Source of the DNA: Ignavibacteriota bacterium
GTDB lineage: Bacteria; Bacteroidota; Ignavibacteria; UBA10030; SZUA-254
Reading direction: 5' to 3'
NCBI GenBank assembly: GCA_963727845.1
Contig: CAVSHI010000003.1
Span: 937,913-1,001,912 of the forward strand
Length of the DNA stretch: 64,000 bases
Below the pieces are notes generated by a model. It made no database searches. It had not been told where the DNA came from and worked only from the letters and a program-made list of their open reading frames with translations. The position numbers and the translations under genes were made by a program. Below are positions 2,170-63,900 of this stretch, one piece after another (the stretch's first letter is position 1; each line of letters starts with the position of its first letter).

Positions 2170-3339
2170 ATGAATCCACTATCACTCAATAGAAGAGAGT
2201 CACATATGGTTCGAACAACACGCATACGTTCTTATATGGCCGGAGTTGCCATGCTCGGCATATTTCTGCCGGCAAGCTCGTGGGCATTTGGCCGTGATAG
2301 CCAGCCACAGGAAAAGAACTCCCCGGTTATGAAAACAGCCGAGCAAGTGAAAAAGAACATTCTAGCGCTTAAGGGGCTCCCCGCGTCGCAATTCAATACA
2401 GTCATGGATTTCATGTCAACTTCTCTCGGCGTTCGATGCAACCACTGCCACGTTTCCGATTCGACCGGCTGGCAATTTGAAAAAGACGATAAGGCGGAGA
2501 AACGCACCGCCCGAAAGATGATCCAGATGGTTATGGATTTGAATACGAAGAACTTCGGAGGGAGAAACGCGGTAACCTGTGTTACATGCCACCATGGCTC
2601 ACCGCAGCCGACGGCGTTGATGTCGCTTCCCCAACCTCCCGCTAAGCCTGAGAAAGAGAACACGGCCATTCCTTCGATGCCTGGCGTCGAACAGTTGCTC
2701 GCTTCCTACGAGAAAGGTCTCGGAGGGGCAGATGCGCTGAAGAAAATCTCTTCCCGCATCATGAAGGGAGTTTCCGTCGACGCACAGGGCAAGGAATCCC
2801 CTATTGAGATTGTCCAGCAGGAACCGGACAAGTATGCCGCGACGACGACAGGGGATCGCGGTGCTTTCACCCGGACGGTCAATGGTACAGCCGGCTGGAT
2901 GAGCTCACCGCGCGGCACGCGGGAACTGCCTCCGGATGCAGTCGAAGAGCTGAAACGAGATGGAGCGCTCTTCCCCATCGTTAGAATGAAAGAACTTTCC
3001 AAGACGATGCGTGTCAGCGACAAAGACACCGTGAATGGCACGACAGCCTATCTGCTCACAGCCCCCGCAGGAGAACACAATACCGAACGCTATTACATTG
3101 ACAGCTCGAGCGGACTTCTTCTCCGCAGAGTTATTATCACCGAGACGATGATCGGCGACATCCCCGAGCAGGTCGATTATTCTGATTATCGTGCCGTTAA
3201 CGGAGCAATGGTTCCGTTCACTGTGCGGACCGCAGCTGTCGACCCGCGGGACGGCTCGACACAGCGCTTTTCTTCCATCGAGCAGAATGTTTCCATCGAC
3301 GAAAAGAAATTCTCAATGCCTGAAAACAAAAAGAAATGA
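2170..3339 (+). CDS. dihaem c-type cytochrome (photosynthetic-reaction-centre cytochrome c subunit-like N-terminal domain) with extra C-terminal domain
   Basis: Two CxxCH haem-binding motifs (CNHCH, CVTCHH) in the first ~130 aa. Signal-like N-terminus (MAGVAMLGIFLPASSWAFG), so the true start is probably 2206 or 2236. ~250-aa C-terminal extension of unknown function. Confidence 0.7.
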   Translation: MNPLSLNRRESHMVRTTRIRSYMAGVAMLGIFLPASSWAFGRDSQPQEKNSPVMKTAEQVKKNILALKGLPASQFNTVMDFMSTSLGVRCNHCHVSDSTGWQFEKDDKAEKRTARKMIQMVMDLNTKNFGGRNAVTCVTCHHGSPQPTALMSLPQPPAKPEKENTAIPSMPGVEQLLASYEKGLGGADALKKISSRIMKGVSVDAQGKESPIEIVQQEPDKYAATTTGDRGAFTRTVNGTAGWMSSPRGTRELPPDAVEELKRDGALFPIVRMKELSKTMRVSDKDTVNGTTAYLLTAPAGEHNTERYYIDSSSGLLLRRVIITETMIGDIPEQVDYSDYRAVNGAMVPFTVRTAAVDPRDGSTQRFSSIEQNVSIDEKKFSMPENKKK

Positions 3340-3961: not shown

Positions 3962-6900
3962 TCATCCGGAAACGGAACTCTGGTGCGCGATTTCCATCAC
4001 TTTTCTTTTCGTATCTTCCAGCCGCTCCTTTGTGCCGTCCGGCAGGATATGCATGAATTGCAGCGTTAATTCCTTCCCAACCTGTTTGAGGTACACGTCT
4101 TTCATTTCTCCGCTGCTCACCTTTTCCATCATCCGCTGGAATGGCGCCGCTTTGTAACCATCGCCCGCCATATCACTGCCGGTGGGTGATCCGTAAAACC
4201 GTTCGTCGGATGCGTCGGGCAACGTAATGGACATTCGTTTACCTTTGAGCGAGACTTTTTGAAAGCCGGCGCGGGATGCCGCCATCCGCAGCTCGACGAG
4301 AAGAAACAAATGTTCCACCTCTTCGGGGTACTCACCAAAACGGTCATGCAATTCTCCCCGCATGGCAGTGAGTTCCTCATCGCTCACCGCCCTGTACAAA
4401 CGGCGGTAGATATCGAGACGCTCGGAATTGGATTCGACGTAGAAATCGGGGATGAGTGCTTCAATATCCGATTCGATGACAGTTTCCACAGATTTCGATG
4501 CGCGAGTCGGAAATTTCGAAGCGTCCTTTTGAAAAACCTCGGTGAATTCCTCCTGCTTTAATTCCTCCACTGCCTCACGGACGACGCGTTCGTACATTTC
4601 AAAACCCATTTCCATGATAAAGCCCGATTGCTCGGCGCCGAGTAGATTGCCGGCACCCCGAATCTCCAGGTCACGCATCGCCAGATTGAAACCCGAAACC
4701 GAGCTCGGTAAATTCTTCAATGGCCTGCAAGCGGCGCAGTGTCGGCCTGGGCAGAATGCCCAGCGGCGGGGTCAACAGGTATGCATACGCCTGGACGTTT
4801 GAGCGACCGACACGCCCGCGCAGCTGGTACAACTCCGCAAGCCCGAACCGGTCCGCACGATTGACGATAATGGTGTTCACGCTCGGAATATCGATACCCG
4901 ACTCAATGATCTTGGTGCACACGAGAACGTCCCGCTTTTTCTCAAGGAAATCGAACATTACCCTCTCGAGCTCGTGTCCGTGCATCTGACCGTGGGCGAC
5001 ATCAACCCGGGCTTCCGGGACGTGCGATTGCACCTGCTGGGCGATCGCATCGATGTTGTTCACCCGGTCGTGCACAAAATACACCTGTCCGCCGCGGTGC
5101 AATTCCTTGAGAATCGCCTCACGGATAAATTGCCAGTGTCCGCGCTTATCCGTAAAATCTGCGGGCACTATTTCCGTGACAATCGGCAGACGATTTCTCG
5201 GCGGCGTTGAAATGAGCGAGAGGTCACGTGCCCCGGCCAGCGAGAAGTGCAGCGTGCGCGGAATCGGCGTTGCCGTCAATGTGAGTGTATCGACGACCGC
5301 CTTTACCTTGCGCAATTTCTCCTTCGCCGCCACGCCGAAACGGTGTTCTTCATCGATGATCAGCAAACCCAGGTCTTTCAACGCGACATCCTTCGAGAGC
5401 AGGCGGTGCGTGCCGATAATGATATCGATACCTCCGGTTTCGAGCAGCTGCACAATCTTCTTTTGCTCTTTTGTCGATTTGAATCGCATAATGCTCTCGA
5501 TTCTCACGGTGTATCGTGCCAGCCGATCCTGGAAGGTATTGTAATGCTGCATTGCGAGAATCGTTGTCGGTACAAGCACTGCCACCTGTTTTCCGTCCAT
5601 CACGGCTTTGAAGGCGGCGCGAACGGCAACCTCGGTTTTACCGAATCCAACGTCGCCGCAGATGAGACGGTCCATGGGCGATGCACTTTCCATGTCGCGC
5701 TTCACGTCCAGAGTCGCTTGCGCCTGGTCGGGAGTGTCTTCATACATGAACGACGCTTCGAGCTCCTTTTGCCAGTGCGTGTCGGGAGAGAAGGCAAAAC
5801 CCCGTTCATGTTTGCGGCGGGCGTAGAGGGCAATCAGGTCCCGCGCAATGTCTTTGATGCGCCGTTTCGCACGGGCTTTCATCCGCTCCCACTCGTCACC
5901 CCCGAGCTTGCTGAGTTTCGGGATGTGACTTTCCTGTGACGAGTATTTCTGGACCCGGTTAACAAAATTCAAATTGACGTACAGGACATCGTTTTCAAGA
6001 AACAGCAGTTTTATAACTTCCTGGTCGATCCCCCCGACCTTTAGTTTCGCCAGGCCTGCAAAGGTCCCGATGCCGTGGTCGACATGGACAACACAATCGC
6101 CGGGTCGGAGCTGCTGCAGTTCTTTCTGCGTGAATCCTTTGAAACGCCGGCGCTTGCCGGATCCACGACGCCTCAGCCGTCCGAATATTTCGTGCTCGGT
6201 GAAGACCGCAAGCCTGGCCGGAGGGAAAATGAATCCGGCATGAATCGTTTCAGAAATAATATCGAAGGTAACCGCTGATGGTGCGGCTTTCCCTCCGTCC
6301 AGGCGAGGGACCGGGAATTCATTTTCATCCTGTCGAACGTCTGCAATCCGCGTTCCGAGCCCCGATACCGCATAAGGATCTTCAGGAGAGGTCAGAACTT
6401 CCTCCACCAGCTCTTTGAGCCGCGCGCCCTCTTCCTTCGTGTCGCTTGCGAGATGAATAATATATCCATCCAGGGAAAGTTTCTTCAGCGTGTCGACCAG
6501 CATGTTGATGCTTCCATTAAAGGCCGGCTGAAGAACCGACGCAAAATCTATAAGAGATGTCGATTGTTGATTCTCGACGGTCGACGGTTGATGATGAAAC
6601 GGTGAATTGATGATCCGGCGAAAAGCCCCGGACCGTCCATCGATAAACTTCCAGTCAAAAAGGTTTTGGATGCCTTCCTGGAAAAGTTCACCAATCTCCG
6701 CCTCGATGAGCGCAGGGCCGTCGAGAATGATAATCGCATCGGGAGACAGGTAGTCGAACAACGACGCCGAAAGTTCTCCCACCTCATCTGCCGCACCGGT
6801 CACCTGCGGTCTATCCGTGTCGTCAACCGAATCGTCGGTCAGCGCTGGAACGATGCTCGCCGTGGGCAGCTCCCGGATCGACCGCTGCGAAATCACATCA

Positions 6901-7520
6901 AACTCCCGGATCGATTCGATCGTGTCGCCGAAGAATTCAATCCGGATCGGGTTTTCTCCGACAAACGGAAACACATCGACGATCCCCCCGCGGACAGCAA
7001 CATCGCCGTACCCTTCTACGAAGTCTTTTTGCTCAAAGCCGTTCTCAATTAAACGCGCGATGAAATCCTGAAAAGGCTTTTCTTCACCTGTTTTCAACTC
7101 AATGATCATCCTGGTAAACTTATCCCTGGGCGGAACACTCTCGGCCACGGACTCCGGCGATGCGACCACGACAACACTCGTGCCCGTGGCGAGCGTCTTC
7201 AGCGTTTCAGTCCGGGCAATCGGTGCGCTCATATCCAGCATTTGCGCTTGATGACGCGGTCGCGTTCCGAAGAATCGCACATTCCCTTCACCGAGCAAAA
7301 GAGTGCAATCGTCGCGGAGCTTTTCCGCCGAGTCGTCGTCCGGTGCGATCACCACCACTTGCGAGCCACTCTGTTCGAATACGTTTGCTGTCACGAAGGC
7401 GAGCAACGAACCGGCAACGCCTTGAAGAACAAGCGGATGCCCATTTTCAAGGGTCCTTAATTTCTTCCCGAGGGTTTCGAAACAATCCGAGTGAAATATT
7501 CTCTGCTTGATTTTCTTCAT
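3962..7520 (-). CDS. mfd: transcription-repair coupling factor Mfd, interrupted by an apparent 1-nt indel (ORFs 4671..7520 and 3962..4720)
   Basis: 949-aa ORF carries the Mfd N-terminal UvrB-homology, RNAP-interaction and DEAD/helicase motifs ([19 protein letters not shown]). The 252-aa ORF carries the TRCF C-terminal domain ([23 protein letters not shown]). The frames overlap at ELGFGF/SGFNLAM; DNA GGTTTCGGGTTTCAATCTGG would read ELGSGFNLAM with one T removed. Confidence 0.85.
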
Positions 7521-9262: not shown

Positions 9263-9928
9263 TTACAGGGGAACGTTGCAGTAACTCCATTTCCATTTTG
9301 TCCACTCTTGGACCATTCCAGCTTTAACCGGATTGTTGAGAACGTATTCGATAATCCGTCCGAGATCCCCGTCGTTGCGAACGACATGGTCATAACTTTC
9401 GTGCTGCCAAAAGATGCCGGAACGATACAGTATTTTGTTGGCTTCGTGCGCCGTGAACTTCTTCAAGGATCCAATGATGTCGGTGACAATGTAGCGCGAG
9501 ACGCCGTCTCGCGCAGGTAGCGATTCAGCGAATCGCTCTACGCTGAAAACCATGTGGACATGATTGGGCATAATACAATATGCAAGAAGTTCGTACGCCA
9601 TCTGATCTCTATATTTGATGGCAGCGGACACAAGTCCGGCGATGCGGTCATCACGCAGCCAGAATTGACCTTCAGCCGACGTATCCAAGAACCGATCAAA
9701 ATTTTCGAAATACTGTTTACGCGCTTCCTCGCGCGCCAGATTCCTTTCACTATCGTCGCGCATGTGAGCGATTTGCCTTTCCAGACCCAGGTGTTCTTTC
9801 TTCAGTTGCAATACGACATAATCAGGAAGTGATCCTGCGAGCCGGAATGTCACAAAGAATGTTCCCCGTAATGGCTGGTAGTGGGGTAATCGACAACGGT
9901 AATATATTAATTCGTCTCCCATGGTCAA
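9263..9928 (-). mobile_element. REP-associated tyrosine transposase (RAYT, IS200/IS605 TnpA-like Y1 HuH transposase)
   Basis: HuH motif (MPNHVHMVF) and C-terminal catalytic-Tyr region (IFWQHESYDHVVRNDGD…YVLNNPVKAGMV) matching the RAYT signature W-Q-x-x-(F/Y)-(W/Y)-D-H-x-I-R…NP-x-K-A-G. Flanked by REP copies. Confidence 0.8.
9519..9537. repeat. REP palindrome copy 3 (AGCGATTCAGCGAATCGCT), located inside the RAYT coding sequence
   Basis: Encodes …SVERFAESLP… in the RAYT frame. Preceded by a second 10-bp palindrome GCGCGAGACG-c-CGTCTCGCGC at 9495-9515. Confidence 0.75.
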
Positions 9929-11054: not shown

Positions 11055-11462
11055 ATGATCAAAGTTGCCGTCGGCATCATTATTCAGAATGGACTCGCAG
11101 CACCCGACGTTACTCAGGTGCTCATGTGCCAGCGCAAGCCGACAGCGCTTTATCCGCTCAAGTGGGAATTTCCGGGCGGCAAGTTTGAAAACGGTGAGAC
11201 CGCCGAGGAATGTTTGCTTCGCGAATTGAAGGAAGAGCTGGGCATCAATGCAGAAATCGGCGGACTTTTTCACCGCGAACATCACATGTATCCCGACAGC
11301 GGGACATTCGACGTTCATTACTACCTTGTGCCATCATTCAGCGGGGCGCTTGTGAACCGGGCGTTCACGAATATCCGGTGGGTACCGACGGCGGAACTCC
11401 TGAATTTCGACATTCTGGAAGGGAACCGGGCTGTCATTCAAAAAATTATTAACCGCGCATGA
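11055..11462 (+). CDS. mutT: NUDIX hydrolase, MutT-like (8-oxo-dGTP diphosphatase)
   Basis: Canonical Nudix box GGKFENGETAEECLLRELKEELGI. Start taken at ATG 11055 (MIKVAVGIIIQ…); the longer track ORF from 10878 overlaps thyX. Confidence 0.75.
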   Translation: MIKVAVGIIIQNGLAAPDVTQVLMCQRKPTALYPLKWEFPGGKFENGETAEECLLRELKEELGINAEIGGLFHREHHMYPDSGTFDVHYYLVPSFSGALVNRAFTNIRWVPTAELLNFDILEGNRAVIQKIINRA

Positions 11463-12412
11463 AAGCACTGAACCCGGCGCACGTTAAGATCATTCGCGAA
11501 CAAATTCTCCCCTGGTACCGGAAAAATCGGCGGCCGCTTTTCTGGCGAACATTACGGGACCCTTATGCAATTCTGGTTTCGGAGATCATGCTTCAGCAGA
11601 CCCAGGCAGACCGGGTGGAAGAAAAACTTCCGCTGTTTCTGAAGAAATTTCCAACATTCGATACGCTTGCCGGTGCCCCCAAAGCGGACGTTCTCCGCGC
11701 CTGGCAGGGATTGGGATACAACAATCGCGCTGCTCGCCTCTGGGATCTTGCACGTATCATCGCGAAAGATTTCGACGGCAACCTTCCAGCCGACGTAAAC
11801 ACACTCGAACAACTCCCGGGCATCGGGCCTTACACCGCCCGTGCGGTCGCGTGCTTCGCCTTTCGGAAACACACTTATGTGGTGGATGTAAATGTGCGCC
11901 GAGTCCTTTCACGCGTATTCTGGAGATTACGGACACGTTCAGAGGTTGGGGAGGAACAGAACATCTCCCGGATCGCAGAACAGATCCTGCCCCAGGATGC
12001 ACAATCATGGAATCAGGCACTCATGGATCTGGGGTCGACGCTTTGCAAAGCACAGAAACCTCTCTGCCCCACCTGCCCCGTTTCAAATATGTGCCGCTCC
12101 CGGCATTTAGGAGCACAGCCGGGGCGACGACCGAGATCAAAGCTTGTTCCGCTTAAAGCCAGGCATCGCGTTGAACCAGCATATCAGGATATCCCCCGGC
12201 GAATCTGGCGCGGGCGCATTGTTGAAGTACTGCGCAATGTGAATGGCAGAGGGTCAATCTCGATGCCCGAACTCGGCAACTCCATCAAACCGGATTTCAT
12301 GAAGCGGGAACTCCCCTGGCTCAGCAGTCTCATCGATGCACTTCTCCGCGACGGCATCGTGAGCACGACAGGTCACAGAAACGACGCACGGGTAATGCTG
12401 GCGCACAAATGA
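11459..12412 (+). CDS. mutY: A/G-specific adenine DNA glycosylase MutY
   Basis: HhH-GPD fold (LPGIGPYTARAV) and 4Fe-4S loop C-x6-C-x2-C-x5-C (CKAQKPLCPTCPVSNMC). Start overlaps the mutT stop (ATGA). Confidence 0.85.
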   Translation: MKALNPAHVKIIREQILPWYRKNRRPLFWRTLRDPYAILVSEIMLQQTQADRVEEKLPLFLKKFPTFDTLAGAPKADVLRAWQGLGYNNRAARLWDLARIIAKDFDGNLPADVNTLEQLPGIGPYTARAVACFAFRKHTYVVDVNVRRVLSRVFWRLRTRSEVGEEQNISRIAEQILPQDAQSWNQALMDLGSTLCKAQKPLCPTCPVSNMCRSRHLGAQPGRRPRSKLVPLKARHRVEPAYQDIPRRIWRGRIVEVLRNVNGRGSISMPELGNSIKPDFMKRELPWLSSLIDALLRDGIVSTTGHRNDARVMLAHK

Positions 12413-13047
12413 AAAAACGACGGCAATCACTAACGATCCAAGAAATCCGCGAGCTGTACGAAGAACGGAAGAAAGCAATTCGCGAACGGCTTGCAGAATT
12501 TGCGGCCGTTCGCCCGTCGGCATATTTCTACGAGCTCGTTTACTGTCTCCTGACGCCGCAATCGAGCGCCGTCAACGCCGCGAAAGCAGTCCGGGTTCTC
12601 CGCGACCACAACCTCCGTCATTCTGAAATCGACCCTGAACCGCTGCTGTACCAGAAGGATTTCTATATCCGGTTCCACATAACGAAAGCAAAGCACCTCC
12701 TCGCAGTCAAGGAACAATTTCCATTCATCCGGAAGGAGCTTTTGAACGGCAGCTCCAGTGTGCGGTTGCGGGAGTGGCTGGTGAAGAACGTGAAGGGAAT
12801 CGGCTGGAAGGAAGCCTCGCATTTTTTGCGCAACATCGGGCATCGCGATCTCGCGATTCTCGACCGGCACATTTTGAAGAATCTTGTTCGCCTGGGCGTT
12901 TTGCGCCAGTTGCCGGCGACGCTCACCGCGAAACGATACAAATCAATCGAGAACAAATTCCGAAAATTTTCTGGCGAAGTGCGAATTCCTATGGATGATC
13001 TCGACCTGCTCTTCTGGAGTATGGAAACCGGAGAGATCTTGAAATAG
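12409..13047 (+). CDS. ogg: Ogg2-type 8-oxoguanine DNA glycosylase/AP lyase (archaeal-type N-glycosylase/DNA lyase)
   Basis: ~212 aa with HhH motif and Lys/Asp pair (VKGIGWKEASHFLRNIGHRDLAILDRHI) characteristic of the Ogg2 family. Start overlaps the mutY stop (ATGA). Confidence 0.65.
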   Translation: MKKRRQSLTIQEIRELYEERKKAIRERLAEFAAVRPSAYFYELVYCLLTPQSSAVNAAKAVRVLRDHNLRHSEIDPEPLLYQKDFYIRFHITKAKHLLAVKEQFPFIRKELLNGSSSVRLREWLVKNVKGIGWKEASHFLRNIGHRDLAILDRHILKNLVRLGVLRQLPATLTAKRYKSIENKFRKFSGEVRIPMDDLDLLFWSMETGEILK

Positions 13048-13314
13048 ATGGTGGGTTGTTAGGTAATAGAAGATTGGCAGATGGTGTAGCGAGGAAGGGG
13101 AATAGATTGAGGATGGACGATGGATGATAGCTAAGGCCATTTGCCTTTGGCTTTTAGCAAAAACAATGAACCAATAACAAAGAACCAACAACGCATAACA
13201 CTCTGTCATCGCGAAGCCCCCAATGACCAATGACAAACAACAATTGACTAACCGCAAGTTCGAGAGCACAATGAACCTAAAACAAAGTACAAACAACCAG
13301 CAACGAACCGACAG

Positions 13315-14460
13315 ATGAAAACGCTTGTCATCGGTGCCGGGATGATGGGAAGCGCGATGGCCTATGACCTCTCTCATTCGGAAAGCGTAACCGAAGTGCT
13401 CGTGGCCGACGTAAGCTACGAGAGGGCGGAAGCTGTCGCACTGTCGCTGGGCGACAACGTTCATCCATTGAAACTTGATATTCATTACTATGACGACGTG
13501 ATGTACGTGATGAGCACTGTGGATGTTGCTTTCGGCGCGACGTCGTACACGCACAACCATCTGCTGGCAAGAGCTGCGATTGAAGCGGGGGTTCATTTCT
13601 GCGATCTCGGGGGAAACATGGACGTTGTCGACCGACAGCTTTTGCTTGATCCCCGGGCGAAGGAGGCCGGTGTTTGCATCATCCCGAACTGCGGCCTTGC
13701 CCCCGGGATGGCCTGCGTCATCGCTGCCGGCGCCGCAAAGAAGTTTGAGCATGTCGATGAAATTCACATTCGGGTCGGCGGGCTTCCCCAGCATCCGCAG
13801 CCGCCGCTGAATTACCAGCTCGTCTTTTCCGCGGAAGGGCTCATCAACGAGTATCTTGAGCCGGCGGAAGCGATCCGGGACGGGAAAATTCAGAAGCTCG
13901 AATCGATGACGGAATGCGAAAAACTTGAATTCCCGCCGCCGTTCGGAAAACTGGAGGCATTCAACACGTCCGGTGGTATATCGACATTGACCAGAATGTT
14001 TGAGGGAAAGGTGAGAGACGTCGATTACAAAACCATCCGGTATCCGGGACATTGCGAGAAATTCAAAACGCTCCTGGACCTCGGATTCGCAAGTGCGGAG
14101 CCCATCATGGTCGGGAATTCCACCTCAACCGTACGGGAATTCTTCGAGAACCTTTTACGCAAGAAGCTCGCCTCAAACGGTCCCGATGTCGTGCTCATGC
14201 GCGTTACTGTCACCGGCACCATGGACGGCCGAAAGAGGACACTTGCGTATGAGTTGATAGATTATTATGATACAAATCTGAAGATGACATCCATGATGCG
14301 AACAACGGCCTTTCCAACATCAATCATCGGGCAGATGGTCGTGAACGGCACAATTTCAGTGCACGGCGTTTGTCCGCCGGAGCAGTGCGTACCGCTGGAG
14401 CCATTCCTGGCTGAATTATCCAAAAGAAATATCATTTTGAAAGAATCACTCGCAGGATGA
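13315..14460 (+). CDS. saccharopine dehydrogenase-family NAD(P) oxidoreductase (Lys1 / carboxy(nor)spermidine dehydrogenase-like)
   Basis: N-terminal Rossmann GxGxxG (MKTLVIGAGMMGSAMAYDL). Length and layout as in the Sacchrp_dh family. Confidence 0.7.
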   Translation: MKTLVIGAGMMGSAMAYDLSHSESVTEVLVADVSYERAEAVALSLGDNVHPLKLDIHYYDDVMYVMSTVDVAFGATSYTHNHLLARAAIEAGVHFCDLGGNMDVVDRQLLLDPRAKEAGVCIIPNCGLAPGMACVIAAGAAKKFEHVDEIHIRVGGLPQHPQPPLNYQLVFSAEGLINEYLEPAEAIRDGKIQKLESMTECEKLEFPPPFGKLEAFNTSGGISTLTRMFEGKVRDVDYKTIRYPGHCEKFKTLLDLGFASAEPIMVGNSTSTVREFFENLLRKKLASNGPDVVLMRVTVTGTMDGRKRTLAYELIDYYDTNLKMTSMMRTTAFPTSIIGQMVVNGTISVHGVCPPEQCVPLEPFLAELSKRNIILKESLAG

Positions 14461-14619
14461 ATCTATGAAGCGTCCACTATCGGTCATTATTATTTCGAAA
14501 GACCCCCATACCCTGCAGGAAACTCACAGCCGCTTCGACGCGCAGACGAGTTTCCCACGGTTGAGACTCCTTTCGATCTTTCTGAAAGCTTTCTTCTCAA
14601 AAAACATTTAGAGCACGCC

Positions 14620-15117
14620 ATGCCAGACACAAGTTCTTTTGACATCGTTTCGAAGGTCGATTTGCAGGAAGTCGACAACGCAATCAACCAGGCACGAAAG
14701 GAAATCGCGCAGCGGTACGACTTCAAAGGCTCAAAGACTTCCATCGAGCTGATACAGAAGGAGCATGAAGTCGTCATCCTGTCTGACGATGATTTTCGCA
14801 TGAAGGCGACCGTCGACCTTCTTCAATCGAAGTTCGTGAAACGCGGCGTTCCGCTGAAGGCGTTCACCTATGGTAAGATCGAACCGGCCGCCGGCAGCCT
14901 CGTCCGGCAGACAATCAAACTGCAGAACGGCATTGACAAGGAAAACGCCAGGCTGATCGTCAAGATGATCAAAGACACGAAGCTGCGGGTGCAGGCACAG
15001 ATCATGGACGACCAGGTGCGCGTCAGCGGCAAGAACAAGGACGACCTTCAGGCCGTGATTGCGATGCTGCGCAAAGCAGACCTCAATTTCTCGATGCAAT
15101 ATATTAACTACCGTTAA
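14620..15117 (+). CDS. yajQ: YajQ-family nucleotide-binding protein (UPF0234)
   Basis: 165-aa [41 protein letters not shown]… typical of YajQ. Confidence 0.85.
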
Positions 15118-15124
15118 GCTGAGA

Positions 15125-15820
15125 ATGAGGATTCGACTCCTTCTCGCCGTTCAACTTTTCATCGCTTCAACGGCTTTCTGTCAATATTCCATCCCCGTCC
15201 AGTTCCCGAACCAGCCTTCGCGCAACGCGCAGGTTGCAACATTCCTTCGGGGGAAAACGCTCTACGGCGCTCTGAACGACCTTCTTTCATGCCTTCACAT
15301 CCAGAGTGCTTCTCGCTCCGGGACCAGGCAAGTGCAATTCAAGACAAATAACTGCACGGTGATGGTGACCGCAACCAGTCCGTACGTCGCGATCACCGAC
15401 AGGGATTCCAATATCAGCTCCATACAACTGCCGCAGGACGTTCTGTTCGGAGCAAGCCAGATTTTTGTTCCACTTGAATCGTTCGTTCCCGTTCTCGGTA
15501 CCGTCACCGGAAGGAACATCATATTCAAGTCTGGCGAAAAACGGATCGTGGTGGAAGATGCTGCGGCAGCGTCACCGTACGACATTACCGGACTGAGCGT
15601 GGAGGAAAAGAGCAATGGCGCTCTTGTGCGTATCCGATGCACGAAGACCCTCAAAGACTATGAAAGCTGGGTGAAACCGGAAGCTCGTGAAACGTGGCTC
15701 TACGTAACGATTGCCAACGCAAAAGCGGATACAACCGCCATTACAGCCACGAGGCCATCCGGCATCATGAAACAAATCATCGTGTTTCAATCGCCGACGT
15801 TCCGTCCAGTTCACCGTTAA
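15125..15820 (+). CDS. N-acetylmuramoyl-L-alanine amidase, N-terminal targeting domain portion (frame 2) of a probably single frameshifted amiC-like gene
   Basis: Signal peptide MRIRLLLAVQLFIASTAFCQ at ATG 15125. The ORF ends at 15820 while the catalytic-domain frame is already open from 15771. Confidence 0.6.
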   Translation: MRIRLLLAVQLFIASTAFCQYSIPVQFPNQPSRNAQVATFLRGKTLYGALNDLLSCLHIQSASRSGTRQVQFKTNNCTVMVTATSPYVAITDRDSNISSIQLPQDVLFGASQIFVPLESFVPVLGTVTGRNIIFKSGEKRIVVEDAAAASPYDITGLSVEEKSNGALVRIRCTKTLKDYESWVKPEARETWLYVTIANAKADTTAITATRPSGIMKQIIVFQSPTFRPVHR

Positions 15821-16688
15821 GCTGAAGGGAAAGTTCACGAGCACCGAGCCGTCATCGGCAGAAGGCTCAAACGACATCCTCATCGCGCTCCCGACACCAC
15901 CCCCAGAAAAGAACGACGATGTCGAGCGGTCGTTGGACCGAGAACGGAGCAAGTGGAAACTCGATTGCATCGTCATTGATGCGGGGCACGGCGGCGACGA
16001 CCCGGGAACTATCGGCGTCGCGCGAACAAAAGAGAAAGACATAACGCTCGCCATCGCGCTTAAACTCGGCAAGTTGATTGAGAAGAGCCTTCCGCAGACG
16101 AGAGTCGTCTACACGCGAAAAACCGATGAATTTATTGAATTATACCGCCGCGGCCAGATCGCAAACGAAGCCCAGGGAAAACTCTTTATCAGCATCCACT
16201 GCAACTCCGCCCCCCGGAAACCGGCTCCGGCACATGGGTTCGAAATCTATCTCCTGCGTCCAGGAAAAACAGAGAACGCTGTTCGCATTGCGGAACGGGA
16301 AAACGATGTCGTCAAACTTGAGAAAAATTACGAGCAGCGTTATCAGGAATTGAATGAAGAGCGTTTCATTCTCGTCACCATGGCACAGAGCGCCTACGTC
16401 AAGTACAGCGAACAATTTGCCGGAATCGTTCAGCAGGAAATGGGAAAGTATCTCAAGCAGGAGAATAACGGCGTGAAGCAAGCCGGGTTCTACGTGCTCG
16501 TTGGCGCATCAATGCCGAATGTGCTCATCGAGACCGGATATCTCTCCAACCGGAAAGAGGAACAGGTACTAAAGAGCGCGAAGGGGCAACAGCACATCGC
16601 CGAAGCGATCTTCAACGCGGTGAAGCGGTACAAGCAGGGATACGAGAAATCTCTGGAGGAGGGTAAGGACATTGGGACGCCGGATTGA
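15771..16688 (+). CDS. N-acetylmuramoyl-L-alanine amidase catalytic domain (Amidase_3) portion; first in-frame start is TTG 15933
   Basis: Amidase_3 hallmarks (CIVIDAGHGGDDPGTIG, …FISIHCNSA…, …VLIETGYLSN…). Protein-like Pro/Glu linker (VQFTVKLKGKFTSTEPSS…LPTPPPEKNDD) in the same frame upstream of the first start codon. Confidence 0.7.
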   Translation, partial: NKSSCFNRRRSVQFTVKLKGKFTSTEPSSAEGSNDILIALPTPPPEKNDDVERSLDRERSKWKLDCIVIDAGHGGDDPGTIGVARTKEKDITLAIALKLGKLIEKSLPQTRVVYTRKTDEFIELYRRGQIANEAQGKLFISIHCNSAPRKPAPAHGFEIYLLRPGKTENAVRIAERENDVVKLEKNYEQRYQELNEERFILVTMAQSAYVKYSEQFAGIVQQEMGKYLKQENNGVKQAGFYVLVGASMPNVLIETGYLSNRKEEQVLKSAKGQQHIAEAIFNAVKRYKQGYEKSLEEGKDIGTPD

Positions 16689-55905: not shown

Positions 55906-56339
55906 GCTGCAACTCCAACAGTCTCTTCGATCATAATCTCACGGCTGTTCTCCGTATTCCCGAGCTTCGGATCAACGTCGAAGCGGCGGGGAGGGAGAAG
56001 GCTTTGAACGCGGTCCGCCCATTCAATGAGGCAAATGCCGTCGCCATCCAGAGATTCTTCAAAGCCGAGCTCACGAAGTTCCGGCTCCGAAGTGACGCGG
56101 TAGAAATCCCAGTGATAGACCGTGAGGCCGTCGCCTGCATACTCCCTCAGAATTGTGAATGTCGGACTCATGACGCGTTCCCTGACTCCGAGGCCTTTGC
56201 AGATTCCTTTCACCAGGCATGTTTTCCCCGTTCCGAGGTTGCCGAAACATGCGACGACGTGTCCCCGTAGCAACCGGCGTGCGAGTTCCATTCCAGCCGC
56301 GACGGTCTCTTCCTCGGAGTGTGTAATGACTTTCGTCAT
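55902..56339 (-). CDS. tsaE: tRNA t6A biosynthesis ATPase TsaE (YjeE)
   Basis: P-loop GNLGTGKT and the YjeE-type SPTF…Y.HWDFYR motif. Confidence 0.8.
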   Translation of the reverse strand: MTKVITHSEEETVAAGMELARRLLRGHVVACFGNLGTGKTCLVKGICKGLGVRERVMSPTFTILREYAGDGLTVYHWDFYRVTSEPELRELGFEESLDGDGICLIEWADRVQSLLPPRRFDVDPKLGNTENSREIMIEETVGVAA

Positions 56340-57944
56340 TGTTTGGGTTCAAGTTTCACGATCGGCAGAATCATTTCTTCCATCGATATACCTCCGTGCT
56401 GGAAGCTGTCGCGGTATTGGTTGACGTACTTATGGAAATCGGTCGGATAGACGAAGTAGTAGTCTTCCTTCGCAATGAGATAATTGATCGTCACACTCCG
56501 GCGTGGAAGTCGAAAATCCGCCGGGTTTTTCACAAAGATAGCCTGGCGTTCATCACACTTGAGGTTGCGTCCGAATTTGTACCTGAGGTTGGTCGAGGCC
56601 TCTTTGTCGGCAATGACCCGCGCGCTACGCATGCAGCGGATGCTGCCGTGATCCGTCGTTAAAATAATCGTCACATTTTTCTGGCGCGACAGCGTGCGCA
56701 GCATGGCGAGGAAGGAAGAATGCATGAACCACGATTTCGTCAGCGAGCGGTACGCCGACTCGTCGGGAGCGATTTCCTTGAGAAGCTGCGAATCGGACCG
56801 CCCATGCGCCAGCATATCCACAAAATTGAGGACAATGGACGTCAGCGGATTCTTCGCATAGGAGAGGATGTTCTGCTCGATGCTGCGTCCGAATTCCGGG
56901 TCAAGGATTTTGACGTATTTCGATTCGGGCTTGAGCTGAACTTTGCGCCGTTGCAACAGGTTGTCGAAGAAATTGATGTTCGTTTCGGTTCCGGCTATTA
57001 TCGTCGTCTTCCCATTCCTCCCAGATTTCCGGAAATCGTCCTTCGATTTCATCCGGGAACGCGCCGCTGAAAATCGCGTTGCGAGAATACGGCGTGGCAG
57101 TCGGAAGAATCGAATAGTAGTAATCGCGGGTGACGTTGTAATACTCGCGCAGGACCGACTCCATCATCAACCACTGGTCAAGCCGCAAACAATCGATCAC
57201 GAAGAAGAAGACGGAGCGCCCTTTGGAAAGCTCGGGGATGAGGAACCGTTCGACAACGTCCACCGACAGCTTCGGCCGGTTCTTCTGCTCCAACCAGTGA
57301 CGGTAATTGGCCTCGACAAATTTCGAGAACTCGACGTTGCATTCCCGGATCTGGTCGCGGAGTGTCAGCCGCAATTCCGATTCAGAGTGGATATCAAACT
57401 CGAGAGCCCAGTGCGAGAGCTTGTCATAGATTTCTATCCAGTCGGCTGAATTCAGGGGCGATTGAAGGGTGACGGAAATCTCGTTGAATTCTTTTATGTA
57501 GTCGCGCGATGCATAATCCTCGGTGATTTTTTTTCCCTCCAGGAATTTTTTGCACGTCAGCAGAACCTGGCTCGGGTTCACCGGCTTGGTGAGGTAATCG
57601 TTGATCTTGACGCCGATGGCTTCTTCCATGAGCCCTTCGTCTTCGTTTTTCGTGACCATGACAACGGGAAGTTCGGGCTTCATGTCTTTTATGACCGTGA
57701 GGGTCTTCAACCCCCCCATGCCGGGCATCATCTCGTCAAGAAAGACCATGTCGAAATTGCCGGATCGCACAAGGTCGGCGGCATCTTCCCCGTTGGTTGC
57801 GGTTACGACGCCATACCCCTTCTCTGTCAGCAGCATGATATGCGGCTTGAGAAGCTCAATTTCGTCGTCAACCCACAGAATTTTCCCTTTTGTTGCGGTC
57901 GTTGTAAGCATTATTACCTCATAGATAGAAAATACATATTTCAA
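56336..57944 (-). CDS. porX: PorX-like T9SS response regulator (CheY receiver + PglZ/alkaline-phosphatase-like domain), interrupted by an apparent 1-nt indel near 56990-57010
   Basis: ORF 56901..57944 has the receiver (KILWVDDEIELL…MVFLDEMMPGMGG…) and the start of PglZ (SVFFFVIDCLRLDQW…). ORF 56336..57052 continues PglZ (…TTIIAGTETNINFF…TTDHGSIR…). The frames overlap at EEWEDDD/KTTIIAG. Confidence 0.7.
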
Positions 57945-57990: not shown

Positions 57991-60900
57991 TTACTGGATG
58001 GCAATATGAACGTCTAACCCCGCTTCATTCGTGGTCGTTCCGGGGATGGTCGATCCGGCCTGGTCCGGTTCCATCGATGTGAAGCGATAAAAGACCGATG
58101 CCCGGACACGGGAACTGAGGGCATAGTTGACGCGTGGTTCCAGCGTCGTCCGGGTGTTGCCGTCAAGCGGGGTACCGTCGGGGTTTGATGTAAGCAGGTC
58201 GCTCTCGTGCATGCTGCGGGCATTTCGCGTGCGCGAGTATGTCATTGCCAGGTCGATGTCGTTTTGCAGATTGATACCGAATAATGGAAGATTGAATCCG
58301 CGATGAGAATAGCTCAGTGAAAGAGAAATCTCCTGTGCATCCGTCTCGACAATGTTCGAAGCGGAGAGATTCAAGTCGTACGTCGTTGTCGTATTGTAAC
58401 GGAATGTCCCGGATAAATTCCCTTTGAATAGCTCTTTGAACGTTGTATTCAATCCGATGAGAGGAGAAAATCCATATTGCAATCGTTCAACATCGGTTTC
58501 TTCCGAGCCGTCGACTGCGCCGCGGAAATCGCGCCTGAAGTCGGAGGAGTACGCATGTTCGAGCGACATTCGCTGGACGACCGAGCTCAATCCGCCGATC
58601 TTTTCGAGTCCATCCCACCGAAGGGTCCAGTTGGCACGGGGGACGAATTCACCAAAGAATTTGCTCAGGATCGGAAATGCCTCGAGCCCATTTTCAAATG
58701 CATTGGAAAGAGCGACGTTGTCGGGTTGAGTGAGCTTATTCGTCTCGTATCTCTTACCGACTTCCTCCAGCGAGTTATTAAATGCTTTAAAGAGAAAGAC
58801 CGGTGGGATGGTCAGGAACGAACGATCAACGCTCCCCGACCACGTCGACAAACTGGGATGCGCGACCCCGTTGCTGTCCGTCGTTAGTGTTGTCGATTTG
58901 CTGAACTGCCATCCCACCTTCCAATTGATCTCCAGGGTCGCCCCATCCCACAGTGGCCGGCTCGTTTTTAGCGCCACGCTATTGTTTTGTGAGAACTGGT
59001 CGGTCAAGGTGGCATTCGCCGCACGAAGTCCCTGGTCGATCCCTTGCGAGTGCAACTGCGAGAATCCAAAAACGCTCTTTCCGCTAGGATCCGTAGTCAG
59101 TCCCAATTGATACAAGAGAGAGGGACCATTTTCCAGAAGAGAGCCTTGACCCGGGACCCGTCCCCAAAAGTTTTCAAACCCGGTGGTTCCGATGAGCCCG
59201 CTGTTTGCAGAATGGTTCGCTTGCGAAAAGGAAATAGTGATGTTCTCGTAATCAAGCAACGGAATTTTGACGAACAGCTTCGCGATTTTCCTGATCTGCA
59301 GAAGTATGTCTTTTCCCTTCAGCGTCGGTCGTTCCAAAACTGAATCCTGTCTGGCTAATTTTGTTGTATCCTGTCTAGCCCGTTTCGTTGTATCCTGTTT
59401 TGCTGCCGCGGTGGTATCCGCGGGTTTACGCTCCGGCGGTCGACGCCGGGTGATTTGGGCGTTCTCGGGAGGAGAAGGCTCCTCCGTTATCTGGAACAAC
59501 GGGTCGGTCAGCGCCTTCAGTCGGAGGCTCGAGCCCACGGCAATGTTATTATCCCACCCGGCACTTTTGCCGATATCCCCGCCTTGAAATGCATTTTGCC
59601 AGCTGTAGTTGACCGAATAATTGGCGTTGATGTCAAAGTATCTTGGTATATCGAGTACATTCGGAAGCTTCGGCTTTGTATTGATAGAGAAATGCTGGGC
59701 GTAATGCCCGTCCCGGCCGCCCAGGAATATGTCGTGGAGAATCGACGAGAAACCCCTTCCGAGGGAATCGTTATCAAGAAACAAGAGGTCGCGACTGATC
59801 GTGAGACCGTAGTCTCCACTGAGGTTAAGGAACCCCCCCTCGGTTAATTTCCATCCAAATCCAGCCGTCTTGTTGGCGGCAAAAGTGCGGGAATCCTGTA
59901 TGATGGCATCGGGTGCATTGCTTAACGCAGTCGCGCGAGATCGTTGAGCGGTCAATGATGCCGAAAGGTTGGTGAGCGGAACGTAGTAGAACTTCCAATC
60001 CTTAAACTCGTCCAGGAAGAGCAGCTTATTGAAGAGTGACCTGAAGGGTTGAATATAATACTCCGTCGGAAGACCGACCGCATAACTGGTGCCCATGTTC
60101 CAGGCCCAGTTGTTTCTGAATATCGTTGACGGGTCGCGGTCATTCGATTTGGTGAACGTAAAGTTGTACGAGAGCTTGCTGAGAATATCCCGAACGTACC
60201 AGACCTGCCAGGGAAAGGAGAAGTGCACGCCCGGGAGCGAATACGAATCCTGTGTATGCAACGATTGGGAAGACGTAACCACTGCGTTCGCCGCGGCTGC
60301 TGCCGACGTTCCGAGTGGAGCCTCTTCGGCAGCACGAGCGGCTGCCGCATCGACAAGAATATCCGTGCTGGGAAGATACCTGGGCTTGGTTATTGCTTCC
60401 TGATGCGAATATCCGAAAGAAAGCATGGTGCCCTGCCAATCTTGAGGAAAAAATCGCTCGAGCGAGAATGTCGTATTCATTGCCCAGTTGATATGTGTGA
60501 TGCGGTCTCCAACTCGTTGGTCGATACCATGAAAGTTAGGGTCCACTTTCGAATAATTGAAGGCCATTTGACCGAGATCCGAAAGTTTGAGTTGTGTGTC
60601 AAAATGGTACGCGTAGCCCTTCGAATTATCAACGCCGATGACACGAAGTTCATTGTACCAGACGTCACCGGTGAGAGATTGTTTGTGACCGATTCCTTTC
60701 GGTTTGTATAATCCGAGACCGATATAGCGAATTTGGGTCAGCGACGGGTTGCCCTTGACGCCGTAGGGGGTTCCAGGATGATGATAGAGCAGCTTTGCCA
60801 GCGAATCCCGGGCGGCGTTTGCATCGCGCGCAGACTTGATGGATGTCAGTTCAGAAAAAACAACGTCCATCTGGCTCCAATGATCGGGGGACTCATTCGG

Positions 60901-63900
60901 ATCCGAGCCGAGCGGCATGCGGTACTCATAGAAGTTGAGCGTATCCGCTCCGAACCGGAGAAATACTTCGGCGTCATAATCGTTTGGCCCCTTGTACTGA
61001 AACTTTGAGGGGTCGCGATGGACAAACATCTTCATTTCAGTATAGTTGAAAACATCAAGCGGCGCCACTGTGAAGTATTTTGCCGCCTGGCGCTCAGTGC
61101 TGTCGGCCAAACCATTAAATTTCAGGTTGAGTGCCTGCTCGTTGCCGTAGAGTTGTAGATCCGGTTGCGTTTTATCACGCTCGCGGATGACCCCCGGCGG
61201 GCTCGTGTAGTAATCCGGAGCGCCGCTATTGTCTTCAATGCTGACCACCGAAACCTTCATAACGGAATCGGTCTGCACGATCGGGAGCCACTGGTTACCC
61301 ACGAGATTTATATCTGCAATTCGAACAGTGTCGATTTCAGCGACCCCGGAGAGCCAGAGACGGACATATTGTACGTTTTGCAGAATCGATGACGTCGTCT
61401 GGGCGCTTTGCGCAGGAAGAATCCGTGAAGGTTTCTGGAGTGGAATGAGGAACTGGTACCACTGATTGTACCCTCCGCCCGCGATATAGCTGTTGCTGTC
61501 CGGGTCGAGCGGTATCTCGTATTCGAGATAGTTGTTCTCCAGGGTGACCTCGCCATCGCCGTTGAGGTCTTCCGTATCGGGATATTGACCATCGAGTCCG
61601 TTTTTTCCGCCGAGGGAACCCGGGCCATTGCCTTCCGTTCCGTTGATATGCGTAAAATCTGAACCGCCAGTTGAGTAATTGAAATCATCCCCGCTGGGGT
61701 CGTTGACGTCAACATCCGGGTCGTTCTCATTCCTCGCCATAAAAGAACTGATCGCGGGGTCGGCTCTCTCCTGGTCGTCCGAAAGCATGTCCAACCCAAG
61801 ATCCTGACCGGCGTGAAGAACGCCCGTGGGAATACCACTGGGATTGTCGGACGTCACAATGATGTCTTCGGAGTTGAGTTTCTTGTTGGGGATGGCATCT
61901 TCACTGATACGACCGACGTCAACGTACAATCGTCCCTGGCGGACATCGCTGCCCGTCGCCTTCATCCAGATTTCTAAGTAGTCGATGTTCTGTGCAACGA
62001 GATCTCCCGCGGTCGTTGAGATGTATCGCATGACGCCGTTCCAATTACGACGCCGGGCAAATGCGTCGTTGAAGCGGCCCGACTTTCCCCCGATACTTTC
62101 GCGGTGCAGGGTTGAATCGAGATTGGGGGAATAGTTATACATGCCCCTGCGGTTAGGATCAAAGTTCAGAACCATGGTTGTCACAAAATCCTGACCTACG
62201 GGCCGGCTTTGTTTGTATGGCCAAATTTCACGGTCTGTGACGGGATCGATGGTCTGAGAGTTGTTATACCACATCAATTTCGCTTTGCTGTACGTCTTGG
62301 TAGAATCCGGGTCTCCGGTGGTGCTGAGGGTATCCAGCGGCGGGCTTGCCATTTTCCACTGCGTATACGAAAGACCGAGCGGTATCGATCGCAACGCTCC
62401 TTCGAAGTCGTCGATGTAGGCAATGCTTGCGCCGTTGTCGCTCGCAATTGTACTCGTCGTAGTATTCGCGTTCGGCAGAATATAGGCGGCTTCTCCGTTG
62501 ATTCTGAATGTCGACATTTCCCGGGCGTGCAGGAACGGAATCGCATCCAGTGCATCGGTGACGAAGGGAAGGTCGGCCGACGTTCCCGCGTCCACCCCAA
62601 GGATCGTATTATTCGTCGGCTCTTCTCCTAATCGTACTTTGTCGCTCAACGTAGCCTGATTCAAATTCATCAATGTGAACCCAAAGTTCGTGTTCTGGGA
62701 AAGGCTCATCTCCGCGCGCACGCCCATTTGTGTCTTCGATGCAATCTGGAACAAATCGTTTTGCTCGTATTTCACCTGCAAATTCGCGCCTGGAACCAGG
62801 GCCTGGGCATTGCGAACGACTACTTCTCCGATGATATAATCTACCGTATAGTCGACATTGGGTTGCAGGGGCGAGCCATTGAGCAGGACCTGGACGCTTC
62901 CCTCAACGATGTTGAAGCCCCCCAGACTGAAGTGGTTAGACTGCGCCGTCGAGGAGGTGACGCGCATATAGTACACGTCCTTCGTTGCATTCATCTGAGC
63001 CGCTTGCCACGTCGTATCGTAAACATCATTGAACGTCAGCGAGTCGGGGATTACAAAATTCGGGTGATTTTGAATAAAGACGGGATCTTTCTTCGCAAAA
63101 TCGAATGAGAACGGCTGGAGCGTCGGAAAGATTATTTCAGCACGCGCCATGTCGACGGTGAGTCCCGAGATGAAATCAAATTTACCGTCCGGCTTAGGAC
63201 TATTGTCGGTGCTGTACTTATCAAGGCCCATGAGCTCCAGAAGAGTCACGCCGAGAAGAGTGTTTATTTCCGAGCCGCCCACCGGTTTATAGTAAACATT
63301 CAGGTCGAATCCTGCTTGCTTTAAGTCCTTGCCGCCAAGTGAAAAAATATTCTTCATCTGGAGATTCCAGGCCGGCTGGTAGCCCGGTTGGAGGTTTCTG
63401 GGTGCAAGCAGCTTCAAGATAAGGGTCTGAGTCGTGTCTGAAACCGCCGTTTCTCCATAATTGCTTCCCCCGGCTGTGCTGTAGGCGACGGCGAGCGCCT
63501 GATTAGTTCCAACCTCGGCGTTCAAGGAAATATAGCCCGAGGTCGCATCATAAGTGTACTGGTCGGGATAATGCAGCTTAAGGAAATATCCTGTTTCACC
63601 GCGTCCCCCCACATTTTGCACGTTCGTCATGTGCTCCTGAGTGCGCAGACTATCCGGGTAGCCTTTCGCCGGTTGCGGTCCGAGATCGATATACGCATTG
63701 ACCAGCCGCGCCCCCTGACCGGTACTGTTTTGATTCAAATTCGTGCTCAACCAGAACGTCGATATACGTGATACGATTGGAGTCGATATGGGCCGTCAGC
63801 TGTGGAACCGCCATCCGGTGCATTATCTCGAACGAGCTGCGATACGATGTGTCAAGGAGGAAGTGCGTCCTTGCATATTCATAGGCGTGATAGTCGTGCG

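Follow-up and report, generated by a model that had tools for sequence, protein, structure and literature searches.

An overlapping gene trio for a MutT-like Nudix hydrolase, a MutY with a predicted winged-helix domain and an Ogg2 glycosylase in an Ignavibacteria-type bacterium

Introduction

In Escherichia coli, the three genes of the 8-oxoguanine (OG) avoidance system, or GO system (mutT, mutM/fpg and mutY), are dispersed in the genome. MutY is the textbook example of a glycosylase whose lesion lies on the opposite strand and is read by a domain derived from MutT, and the view has been put forward that the enzyme cannot do without its Fe-S cluster; the C-terminal domains of MutY proteins have lost the catalytic Nudix box of the hydrolases from which they derive. 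Here, we analyse a stretch of 64,000 nucleotides from an Ignavibacteriota bacterium (contig CAVSHI010000003.1 of assembly GCA_963727845.1; the whole stretch is referred to below as the window), in which the genes for a MutT-like Nudix hydrolase, a MutY and an Ogg2-type 8-oxoguanine DNA glycosylase are contiguous and overlapping. The same three roles as in E. coli are predicted for these genes, with two differences: excision is by Fpg in E. coli and would be by Ogg2 here, and the MutY carries another domain in the place of the one that faces the OG strand.

The nearest described counterparts of this MutY are recent. In the clusterless MutYX from Eggerthella sp. (PDB 8UUC), a 67-aa X domain, built from three helices and three short strands, stands where the MutT-like domain would be, and recognition of OG falls to Gln201, which closes the connector, and Arg209, which opens the first helix; the enzyme is OG:A specific, and PSI-BLAST with the X domain retrieved clusterless MutYs only (Trasvina-Arenas et al., NAR 2025, PMC12631127). 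Archaeal MutYA proteins have a predicted winged helix-turn-helix C-terminal domain with the same fold as that of MutYX, and representatives complement an E. coli mutY strain (Horvath et al., meeting abstract 2025, PMC12585504). MutYs with a winged helix have therefore been known since 2025, from the MutYX crystal structure and the MutYA predictions, and Ogg2 and MutT-like enzymes are ordinary. A literature search on the MutY of Ignavibacteria, on operons of MutY, MutT and Ogg2 and on the gene neighbourhoods of MutY returned nothing relevant. What appears to be undescribed is a large bacterial clade of MutYs that combine the Fe-S motif with a winged helix, their conserved overlapping operon, and their fusions to an N-terminal Nudix domain.

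Results

Organization and conservation of the gene trio

An initial annotation, made from the letters of the window, had read the region as a translationally coupled GO-system operon of three contiguous genes. The open reading frames (ORFs) and the sequence agree with this layout: the genes are co-directional, and both junctions are 4-nt ATGA overlaps of a stop and a start codon (Table 1). The GC content of the trio (about 0.52-0.53) is the same as that of the flanking DNA. A longer version of the Nudix gene, from a TTG at 10878, was considered and is unlikely, because the 42 orthologues from related loci measure 126-153 aa and their alignment with the gene begins at the ATG.

Table 1 Features of the gene trio and of the sequence directly 3' of it
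Feature	Position in the window	Strand	Basis or remark
MutT-like Nudix hydrolase gene, 135 aa, ATG start	11055..11462	+	predicted 8-oxo-(d)GTP pyrophosphohydrolase
ATGA stop/start overlap of the Nudix and MutY genes	11459..11462	+	sequence context gcgcATGAaag
MutY gene, 317 aa	11459..12412	+	ORF listing
MutY catalytic HhH-GPD domain, residues 1-220, including the predicted [4Fe-4S] loop	11459..12118	+	TIGR01084, PDB matches, conservation
Cys-x6-Cys-x2-Cys-x5-Cys [4Fe-4S] loop, C196/C203/C206/C212	12044-12094	+	motif in MutY
MutY interdomain connector, residues 221-238, basic and variable	12119..12172	+	AlphaFold2 pLDDT, variable alignment columns
MutY C-terminal domain, predicted winged helix, residues 239-317, and stop codon	12173..12412	+	motif EPxYxGIPRRIWRGRIVExLR
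ATGA stop/start overlap of the MutY and Ogg2 genes	12409..12412	+	sequence context caaATGAaaa
Ogg2-type 8-oxoguanine DNA glycosylase/AP (apurinic/apyrimidinic) lyase gene, 212 aa	12409..13047	+	PF22175, PRK01229, MjOgg 3fhf
Weak terminator-like hairpin and T-run in the spacer 3' of ogg2	13133..13156	+	consensus scan only
Saccharopine-dehydrogenase-like gene	13315..14460	+	Pfam Sacchrp_dh_NADP and Sacchrp_dh_C

The suggested operon is conserved in relatives. By tblastn, Nudix, winged-helix MutY and Ogg2 genes follow one another in the same order and on the same strand in 41 distinct loci of Ignavibacteria and Bacteroidota, which is essentially every such locus, and the MutY catalytic domains of these loci are 47-59% identical to that of the window. 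The Nudix and MutY genes overlap or are separated by a gap of at most 40 nt in all scored loci, and the junction of MutY and Ogg2 is a -4 overlap in 32 of 47 junctions, a count that includes duplicate loci and the window. Because 41 loci share order and strand, with tight junctions, the arrangement is more than chance. Upstream of the trio the surroundings vary: thyX, which precedes it in the window, is found there in only 8 of the 41 loci, and the trio is kept where the upstream context differs (for example, locus L085).

A canonical MutY catalytic domain with a predicted [4Fe-4S] cluster

All Pfam matches of the MutY protein (HhH-GPD, HHH and the EndIII Fe-S family) lie within residues 1-220; the EndIII_4Fe-2S match, at 19.5 bits, is slightly below its cutoff of 20.5. 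Against PDB sequences, the protein matches MUTYH and the MutY of Geobacillus stearothermophilus (GsMutY) at about 1e-41, Mig.MthI (1kea) at 1.4e-35 and EndoIII at 2e-18 or weaker. In an alignment of 32 homologues, no variation is seen at E42, Q47, T48, Y87, Y125, N145, R148, C196, C203, C206 and C212, and conservation is at least 90% at D143 and Q186. Aligned with GsMutY, these residues fall on E43 (E42), Q48/T49 (Q47/T48), Y88 (Y87), Y126 (Y125), D144 (D143), N146 (N145) and R149 (R148), and Q186 corresponds to Q182 of the E. coli enzyme and E188 of GsMutY in the adenine pocket. Roles as catalytic Glu and Asp, OG-contacting Gln-Thr, wedge Tyr and adenine-pocket residue have been assigned to these positions (PMC12631127). 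The four cysteines are spaced Cx6Cx2Cx5C, and N145 and R148, which align with N146 and R149 of GsMutY, would form the Asn-Arg bridge to the cluster.

By these criteria of sequence, residues 1-220 are a canonical MutY catalytic domain with a predicted [4Fe-4S] cluster, and the reading of the second gene as a MutY with an Fe-S loop holds, together with its catalytic and OG-contact residues. The HhH-GPD domain, the catalytic Glu and Asp, Tyr126, the Asn146-Arg149 bridge, the Gln or Glu of the adenine pocket, the OG contacts Gln48-Thr49 and Tyr88 and the Cx6Cx2Cx5C motif are all shared with the canonical MutYs of E. coli and G. stearothermophilus (1RRQ, 6U7T). By contrast, actinobacterial MutYX has a variant active site (Glu134, Tyr132/Ala116) where the window's MutY has the canonical Asp143 and Tyr125, and MutYX lacks the Fe-S cluster, whereas the window's MutY and every full-length relative inspected keep the four cysteines.

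A predicted winged helix in place of the MutT-like domain

According to the initial annotation, the last 100 or so residues of the MutY do not obviously resemble the usual NUDIX-like recognition domain. This remark proved correct, and it leads to what is most informative in the finding. Neither NUDIX nor NUDIX_4 matches residues 221-317, and no Pfam family at all is found there; the canonical FSH loop for OG recognition is absent from the protein, as judged by Pfam and by the 32-homologue alignment. Canonical MutYs have a C-terminal MutT-like (NUDIX_4) domain with the FSH loop in this place, whereas the window's MutY is predicted to have a winged helix instead.

An AlphaFold2 (AF2) model of the full-length protein, built from the 32-sequence alignment, has a predicted local distance difference test (pLDDT) score of 90.1 and a predicted template modelling (pTM) score of 0.85. 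In this model, residues 223-233 of the connector have a pLDDT below 50 and form a basic segment modelled as disordered. Beyond it come a short hairpin, three helices and a wing of two strands, which together form a winged helix of about 75 aa. When modelled alone, the C-terminal domain takes the same winged-helix fold (pLDDT 87.8). Its conserved motif is EPxYxGIPRRIWRGRIVExLR, in which R248, R251, G252 and R259 do not vary among the 32 aligned homologues and stay at or above 90% conservation across the Ignavibacteria/Bacteroidota and Chloroflexota clades. The C-terminal domain of this MutY is therefore confidently predicted to be a winged helix.

A Foldseek search with the full-length model returned 8UUC as the sole PDB entry that spans both domains (308 columns, TMq 0.71, TMt 0.81); every canonical MutY was aligned over about 215 columns, with TMq near 0.62. 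The overlay of the AF2 model on 8UUC points to the same two-domain plan as in MutYX, namely a catalytic domain, a connector and a small winged-helix domain, and the elements of secondary structure in the C-terminal domain follow the same order as in the X domain. The invariant R248 stands at the N-terminal end of helix 1, with E239 nine residues upstream; in both proteins a polar residue (Gln201 in MutYX) lies 8-9 residues before the Arg (Arg209 in MutYX). Going by position, R248 and E239 may be the counterparts of Arg209 and Gln201. With archaeal MutYA, as far as the description in the meeting abstract allows the two to be likened, the window's MutY shares a MutY-like N-terminal domain and a winged helix-turn-helix, the differences being that MutYA is archaeal and that the present family is bacterial and stands in an operon with MutT-like and Ogg2 genes.

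Distribution of the winged-helix MutY family

A word-index protein search with the MutY retrieved thousands of relatives. The 120 best of these are almost all about 295-330 aa long, none has NUDIX_4, and the named organisms among them are Ignavibacteria or Bacteroidota. Species-representative genomes were scanned with an alignment of the C-terminal part (residues 176-317) and the family-specific peptide WNQALMDL, and at least 584 MutY loci were confirmed; the best 80 of these come from metagenome-assembled genomes of Ignavibacteria and Bacteroidota and from Chloroflexota. Carriers in the Chloroflexota range from two cultured organisms, Thermosporothrix hazakensis and Ktedonosporobacter rubrisoli, to Dehalococcoidia and SAR202. 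In addition, the C-terminal domain was used as a profile in an exhaustive search, which returned 416 representative proteins at E <=1e-3; the Cys motif is kept in all 40 of those inspected, the listed matches of at least 250 aa. A word-index search with a further alignment of this domain (A5) gave fragments only. All named relatives are bacterial.

An Ogg2-type glycosylase as the third gene

The product of the third gene scores 161.7 bits on PF22175 Ogg-HhH (cutoff 27) and 194 bits on the NCBIfam equivalog PRK01229, above its cutoff of 183, and its best PDB relatives are the Ogg of Methanocaldococcus jannaschii (MjOgg; 3fhf, 6e-32), followed by those of Sulfolobus solfataricus and Thermotoga maritima. 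In MjOgg, K129 and D147 are catalytic and K207 is a C-terminal Lys that contacts OG. K134 of the third gene aligns with the K129Q trapping position of 3knt, and K134, D152 and the C-terminal K212 are conserved in 43 Ogg2 orthologues. On these family scores and residues the assignment to Ogg2 is safe, and the protein would be expected to excise OG from OG:C pairs; it is not a paralogue of EndoIII. The full-length match, the catalytic Lys and Asp and the C-terminal Lys are shared with the described Ogg2 enzymes (3FHF, 3KNT, 3FHG, 3N0U), and only the host lineage and the operon context differ notably. The label "archaeal-type" given to this Ogg2 is right as to family and too narrow as to host, the T. 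maritima Ogg (3n0u) being bacterial. Among the major ORFs of the window, no Fpg, no Nth and no second MutY was found.

A MutT-like Nudix hydrolase as the first gene

The product of the first gene matches Pfam NUDIX at 74.8 bits, and its Nudix box, GGKFENGETAEECLLRELKEELGI, fits the consensus GX5EX7REUXEEXGU. The top NCBIfam models are of the MutT type (PRK08999, 91 bits; TIGR00586 mutT, 82.3 bits), with NudG (PRK10546, 67.7 bits) next, and no model for an ADP-ribose pyrophosphatase scored on the protein. Across the 42 orthologues, conservation of the Nudix box and of a LEGN motif near the C-terminus is at least 90%. The canonical box described in the initial annotation is thus intact, and by these models the protein is not an ADP-ribose pyrophosphatase. 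LEGN aligns with PPAN119 in what we take to be the E. coli MutT (EcMutT) sequence, whose 129-aa length agrees with 1mut; the motif is also present in NudG and in Bdellovibrio RppH (BdRppH) and hence does not by itself establish specificity for 8-oxoG. On sequence, the protein is a hydrolase of the MutT/NudG/BdRppH subgroup and is predicted to be catalytically competent.

Natural fusions of the Nudix and MutY proteins

Two representatives from the search with the C-terminal domain, P0150 (425 aa) and P0179 (437 aa), are single chains that begin with a Nudix domain whose box is intact and continue with a MutY catalytic domain, which has the Fe-S motif, and the winged helix. The fusion genes (L084, 550-1827; L085, 5001-6314) are followed by ogg2 and then by the same downstream synteny as the separate genes. 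A search with P0150 delimited four fusion clusters at 90% identity (P0150, P0299, P0300 and P0179), which are 46-59% identical to P0150, and one of them comes from a 237-kb contig; this speaks for a maintained fusion and against an artefact of assembly. Such fusions are Rosetta-stone evidence, of the classical kind, for a link between the Nudix and MutY functions. In them, a Nudix domain of the active type is N-terminal, whereas canonical MutY has the reverse order, with the MutT-like domain at the C-terminus.

Discussion

A conserved, probably coupled gene cluster proposed to avoid OG mutations

We put at roughly 0.7 the probability that the trio serves to avoid OG mutations in this Ignavibacteria-type bacterium, as a conserved cluster of translationally coupled genes. 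Domain content, conserved residues, gene order, overlaps, conservation of the cluster and natural fusions are observed, the folds are predicted, and from these we infer the substrates of all three enzymes and the role of the winged helix. The Nudix hydrolase would clear 8-oxo-(d)GTP from the nucleotide pool, the MutY would remove A from OG:A pairs, and Ogg2 would excise OG from OG:C pairs. In the MutY, the winged helix would be the domain on the OG strand, with the Arg-rich first helix (R248, R251, R253 and R259) and E239 at the end of the connector as candidate residues for reading or holding that strand. The 4-nt overlaps would lead to co-translation of the three proteins in fixed proportions.

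A number of observations weigh against this reading, and they are set out below together with the alternatives.

The most serious alternative, which we regard as unlikely but far from negligible, concerns the first gene: the Nudix protein may be another MutT-like member, a NudG-like enzyme for CTP/dCTP or a BdRppH-like 5'-pyrophosphohydrolase of RNA, and the cluster would then be a pair for OG excision together with a housekeeping Nudix. The closest PDB entry of the protein is BdRppH (3ees, an RNA/GTP pyrophosphohydrolase, 9.4e-19), ahead of MutT proteins, and its scores on the mutT models are below the cutoffs (97.9 for TIGR00586; for PRK10776, 75.4 against 148); the score on NudG, given above, points the same way. 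Because the TIGR00586 score falls under its cutoff, we infer the exact substrate, 8-oxo-(d)GTP, from family and context. However, the top two NCBIfam models are of the MutT type and the Asn aligned with EcMutT N119 is conserved, and the position of the gene, which is within 40 nt of mutY or overlaps it in 41 loci and is fused to it in four clusters, argues for a shared pathway.

A second alternative, which we consider improbable, is that the MutY-like enzyme has another specificity, either for T:G and U:G as in Mig or for G:A with no preference for OG, and that the winged helix is a generic DNA clamp or a module for protein interaction. The match to Mig.MthI almost equals that to MutY, the FSH loop is absent, and the window's MutY has Ala after QQTQ, which is reportedly the residue of Mig at this position, although the majority of the family has Val. 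Further observations weigh against the main reading itself. The protein scores 223.6 bits on TIGR01084 mutY against a cutoff of 286.5, with model positions 2-213 of 277 matched, because its C-terminal third is unmatched. As for the winged helix, no sequence similarity to the X domain of MutYX was detected: two profiles of winged-helix alignments (A3 and A5), run against all PDB sequences with E up to 10, never retrieved 8UUC, and gave a designed repeat protein, MarR-type regulators and chance matches only. Taken as an isolated domain, it finds equally good matches in hundreds of generic winged helices, and the Chloroflexota clade does not conserve E239. It is thus from position, and not from homology, that a role in OG reading is argued for this domain. 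What speaks against a Mig-like or relaxed enzyme is the at least 90% conservation of Q186, at a site that is Leu in Mig, and the invariance of Q47, T48 and Y87; moreover, MutYX has the same architecture and is OG:A specific, and the gene lies between MutT-like and Ogg2 genes.

It is quite improbable, in our view, that the adjacency is inherited synteny with no functional coupling, as part of a conserved housekeeping block. A co-directional block of functionally unrelated genes does continue downstream, at 13315-16688 in the window and in most relatives: a saccharopine-dehydrogenase-like gene lies directly 3' of ogg2 in 35 of the 41 trio loci, yajQ (of a c-di-GMP-binding family) is found in 30 of the 41, co-directional and usually after a short spacer, and an amidase gene belongs to the block as well. 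None of these has an evident role in repair, and the linkage may in part be no more than synteny. In addition, all trio loci come from a single lineage. A further point against the main reading is that the Chloroflexota loci, in genomes of Ktedonobacteria, Dehalococcoidia and SAR202, have no trio: their MutY (winged-helix motif NRYFRGRIV in L020, L037 and others, for example L037 3437-4420) stands alone with no adjacent Nudix or Ogg2 gene, and in K. rubrisoli it is placed among unrelated genes. Against a purely inherited order, however, the three functions make up one pathway, the junctions overlap by at least 4 nt, the fusions persist at 46-59% identity, and the trio survives a change of upstream neighbours.

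That the Nudix protein supplies a MutT-like OG-recognition module in trans, in complex with the glycosylase and possibly hydrolysing nucleotides as well, draws on its match to PF14815 NUDIX_4, the family of MutY C-termini (50.5 bits, gathering cutoff 35), on the overlapping junction and on the natural fusions, but such a split MutY is judged very unlikely, since the full Nudix box is conserved in the 42 orthologues and in the fusions, the protein has no FSH-type loop but a MutT-like Y-P-D in the aligned stretch, the Nudix domain of the fusions is N-terminal and not C-terminal, in the model the place on the OG strand is already taken by the winged helix, and the MutYs of Chloroflexota have no linked Nudix gene.

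Meaning for the evolution of MutY

The meaning that we draw from sequence, predicted structure and gene context is the following. MutYX introduced a different reader domain in 2025, but only in enzymes that also lack the cluster. A clade with an intact cluster motif, a canonical active site and a winged helix as the putative reader separates the domain swap from the loss of the cluster, and it is natural material in which to ask how OG is read by a winged helix, whether loss of the cluster required the swap, and whether bacteria share the MutYA type with archaea. As genomic evidence that the three GO functions are co-selected as a unit, the conserved overlap of mutT-like, mutY and ogg2 genes and the fusions of Nudix to MutY are unusually direct.

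A more speculative extension, to which we give clearly less than even odds, is that the winged-helix MutY with an Fe-S cluster is the missing intermediate between canonical MutY and MutYX. The domain swap would then have come before cluster loss and independently of it, MutYX of the Chlorobi type would descend from an ancestor of the Ignavibacteria type, and the rare N-terminal fusions would be truly bifunctional, with 8-oxo-dGTPase and adenine glycosylase activities. If so, the fusions would be a second, independent joining of MutT and MutY modules, in the order opposite to that of canonical MutY.

Flanking genes and other features of the window

Because the conserved co-directional block runs on to the saccharopine-dehydrogenase-like gene and yajQ, the operon may be longer than three genes. 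The transcription unit may accordingly extend beyond the three GO genes, and in relatives the saccharopine-dehydrogenase-like gene, which has no evident link to GO repair, may be co-transcribed with them. In the window, a 268-nt spacer (13048-13314) separates ogg2 from this next gene, whereas the equivalent spacer is 20 nt in the related locus L001 and the spacers of relatives are much shorter. Its composition is strongly skewed, G/T-rich at first and then A/C-rich, with short degenerate direct repeats resembling ACAAnGnACnAAnAAC. No stable RNA fold (z +0.97) and no inverted repeats were found in the spacer, and no Rfam family was found in the whole window. Terminator-like sites in a consensus scan are no more frequent than in shuffled sequence; the hairpin listed in Table 1 may mark where the transcript ends in this genome. 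A scan for sigma-70 promoters gave one site, below the shuffle mean, and the promoters of Bacteroidota differ from the sigma-70 consensus.

Several other genes of the window deserve mention. Between arfB and thyX lies an ORF on the minus strand (9263-9928) resembling IS200/Y1 transposases (Pfam Y1_Tnp, 25.1 bits); L001 has a DUF1579 gene in its place, so that a lineage-specific insertion or replacement seems to have occurred. A 389-aa ORF on the plus strand (2170-3339) has a weak match (52 bits) to CytoC_RC, the family of the cytochrome c subunit of photosynthetic reaction centres, and is probably a multihaem cytochrome.

Three genes are split by frameshifts relative to their orthologues. The first is mfd, the gene of the transcription-repair coupling factor (3962-7520, minus strand), present as two overlapping ORFs of 949 aa (UvrB_inter, CarD_TRCF_RID, DEAD and Helicase_C) and 252 aa (TRCF domain); tblastn with the L001 orthologue passes from frame -3 to -1 near 4686-4723, a frameshift that stems from either an assembly indel or a pseudogene. 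The second is the N-acetylmuramoyl-L-alanine amidase gene of the downstream block (15059-16688, plus strand), in ORFs 15059-15820 and 15933-16688 with a change from frame 2 to 3 near 15783-15799; in L001 it is a single gene of 522 aa. The third encodes a PorX-like response regulator with a PglZ domain (56336-57944, minus strand), apparently frameshifted into two overlapping ORFs with half of PglZ each, and adjoins the 1919-aa gene for SprA of type IX secretion (57991-63750). Indel errors may thus be present in the assembly. None of the three GO genes is broken, and all of them agree with their orthologues.

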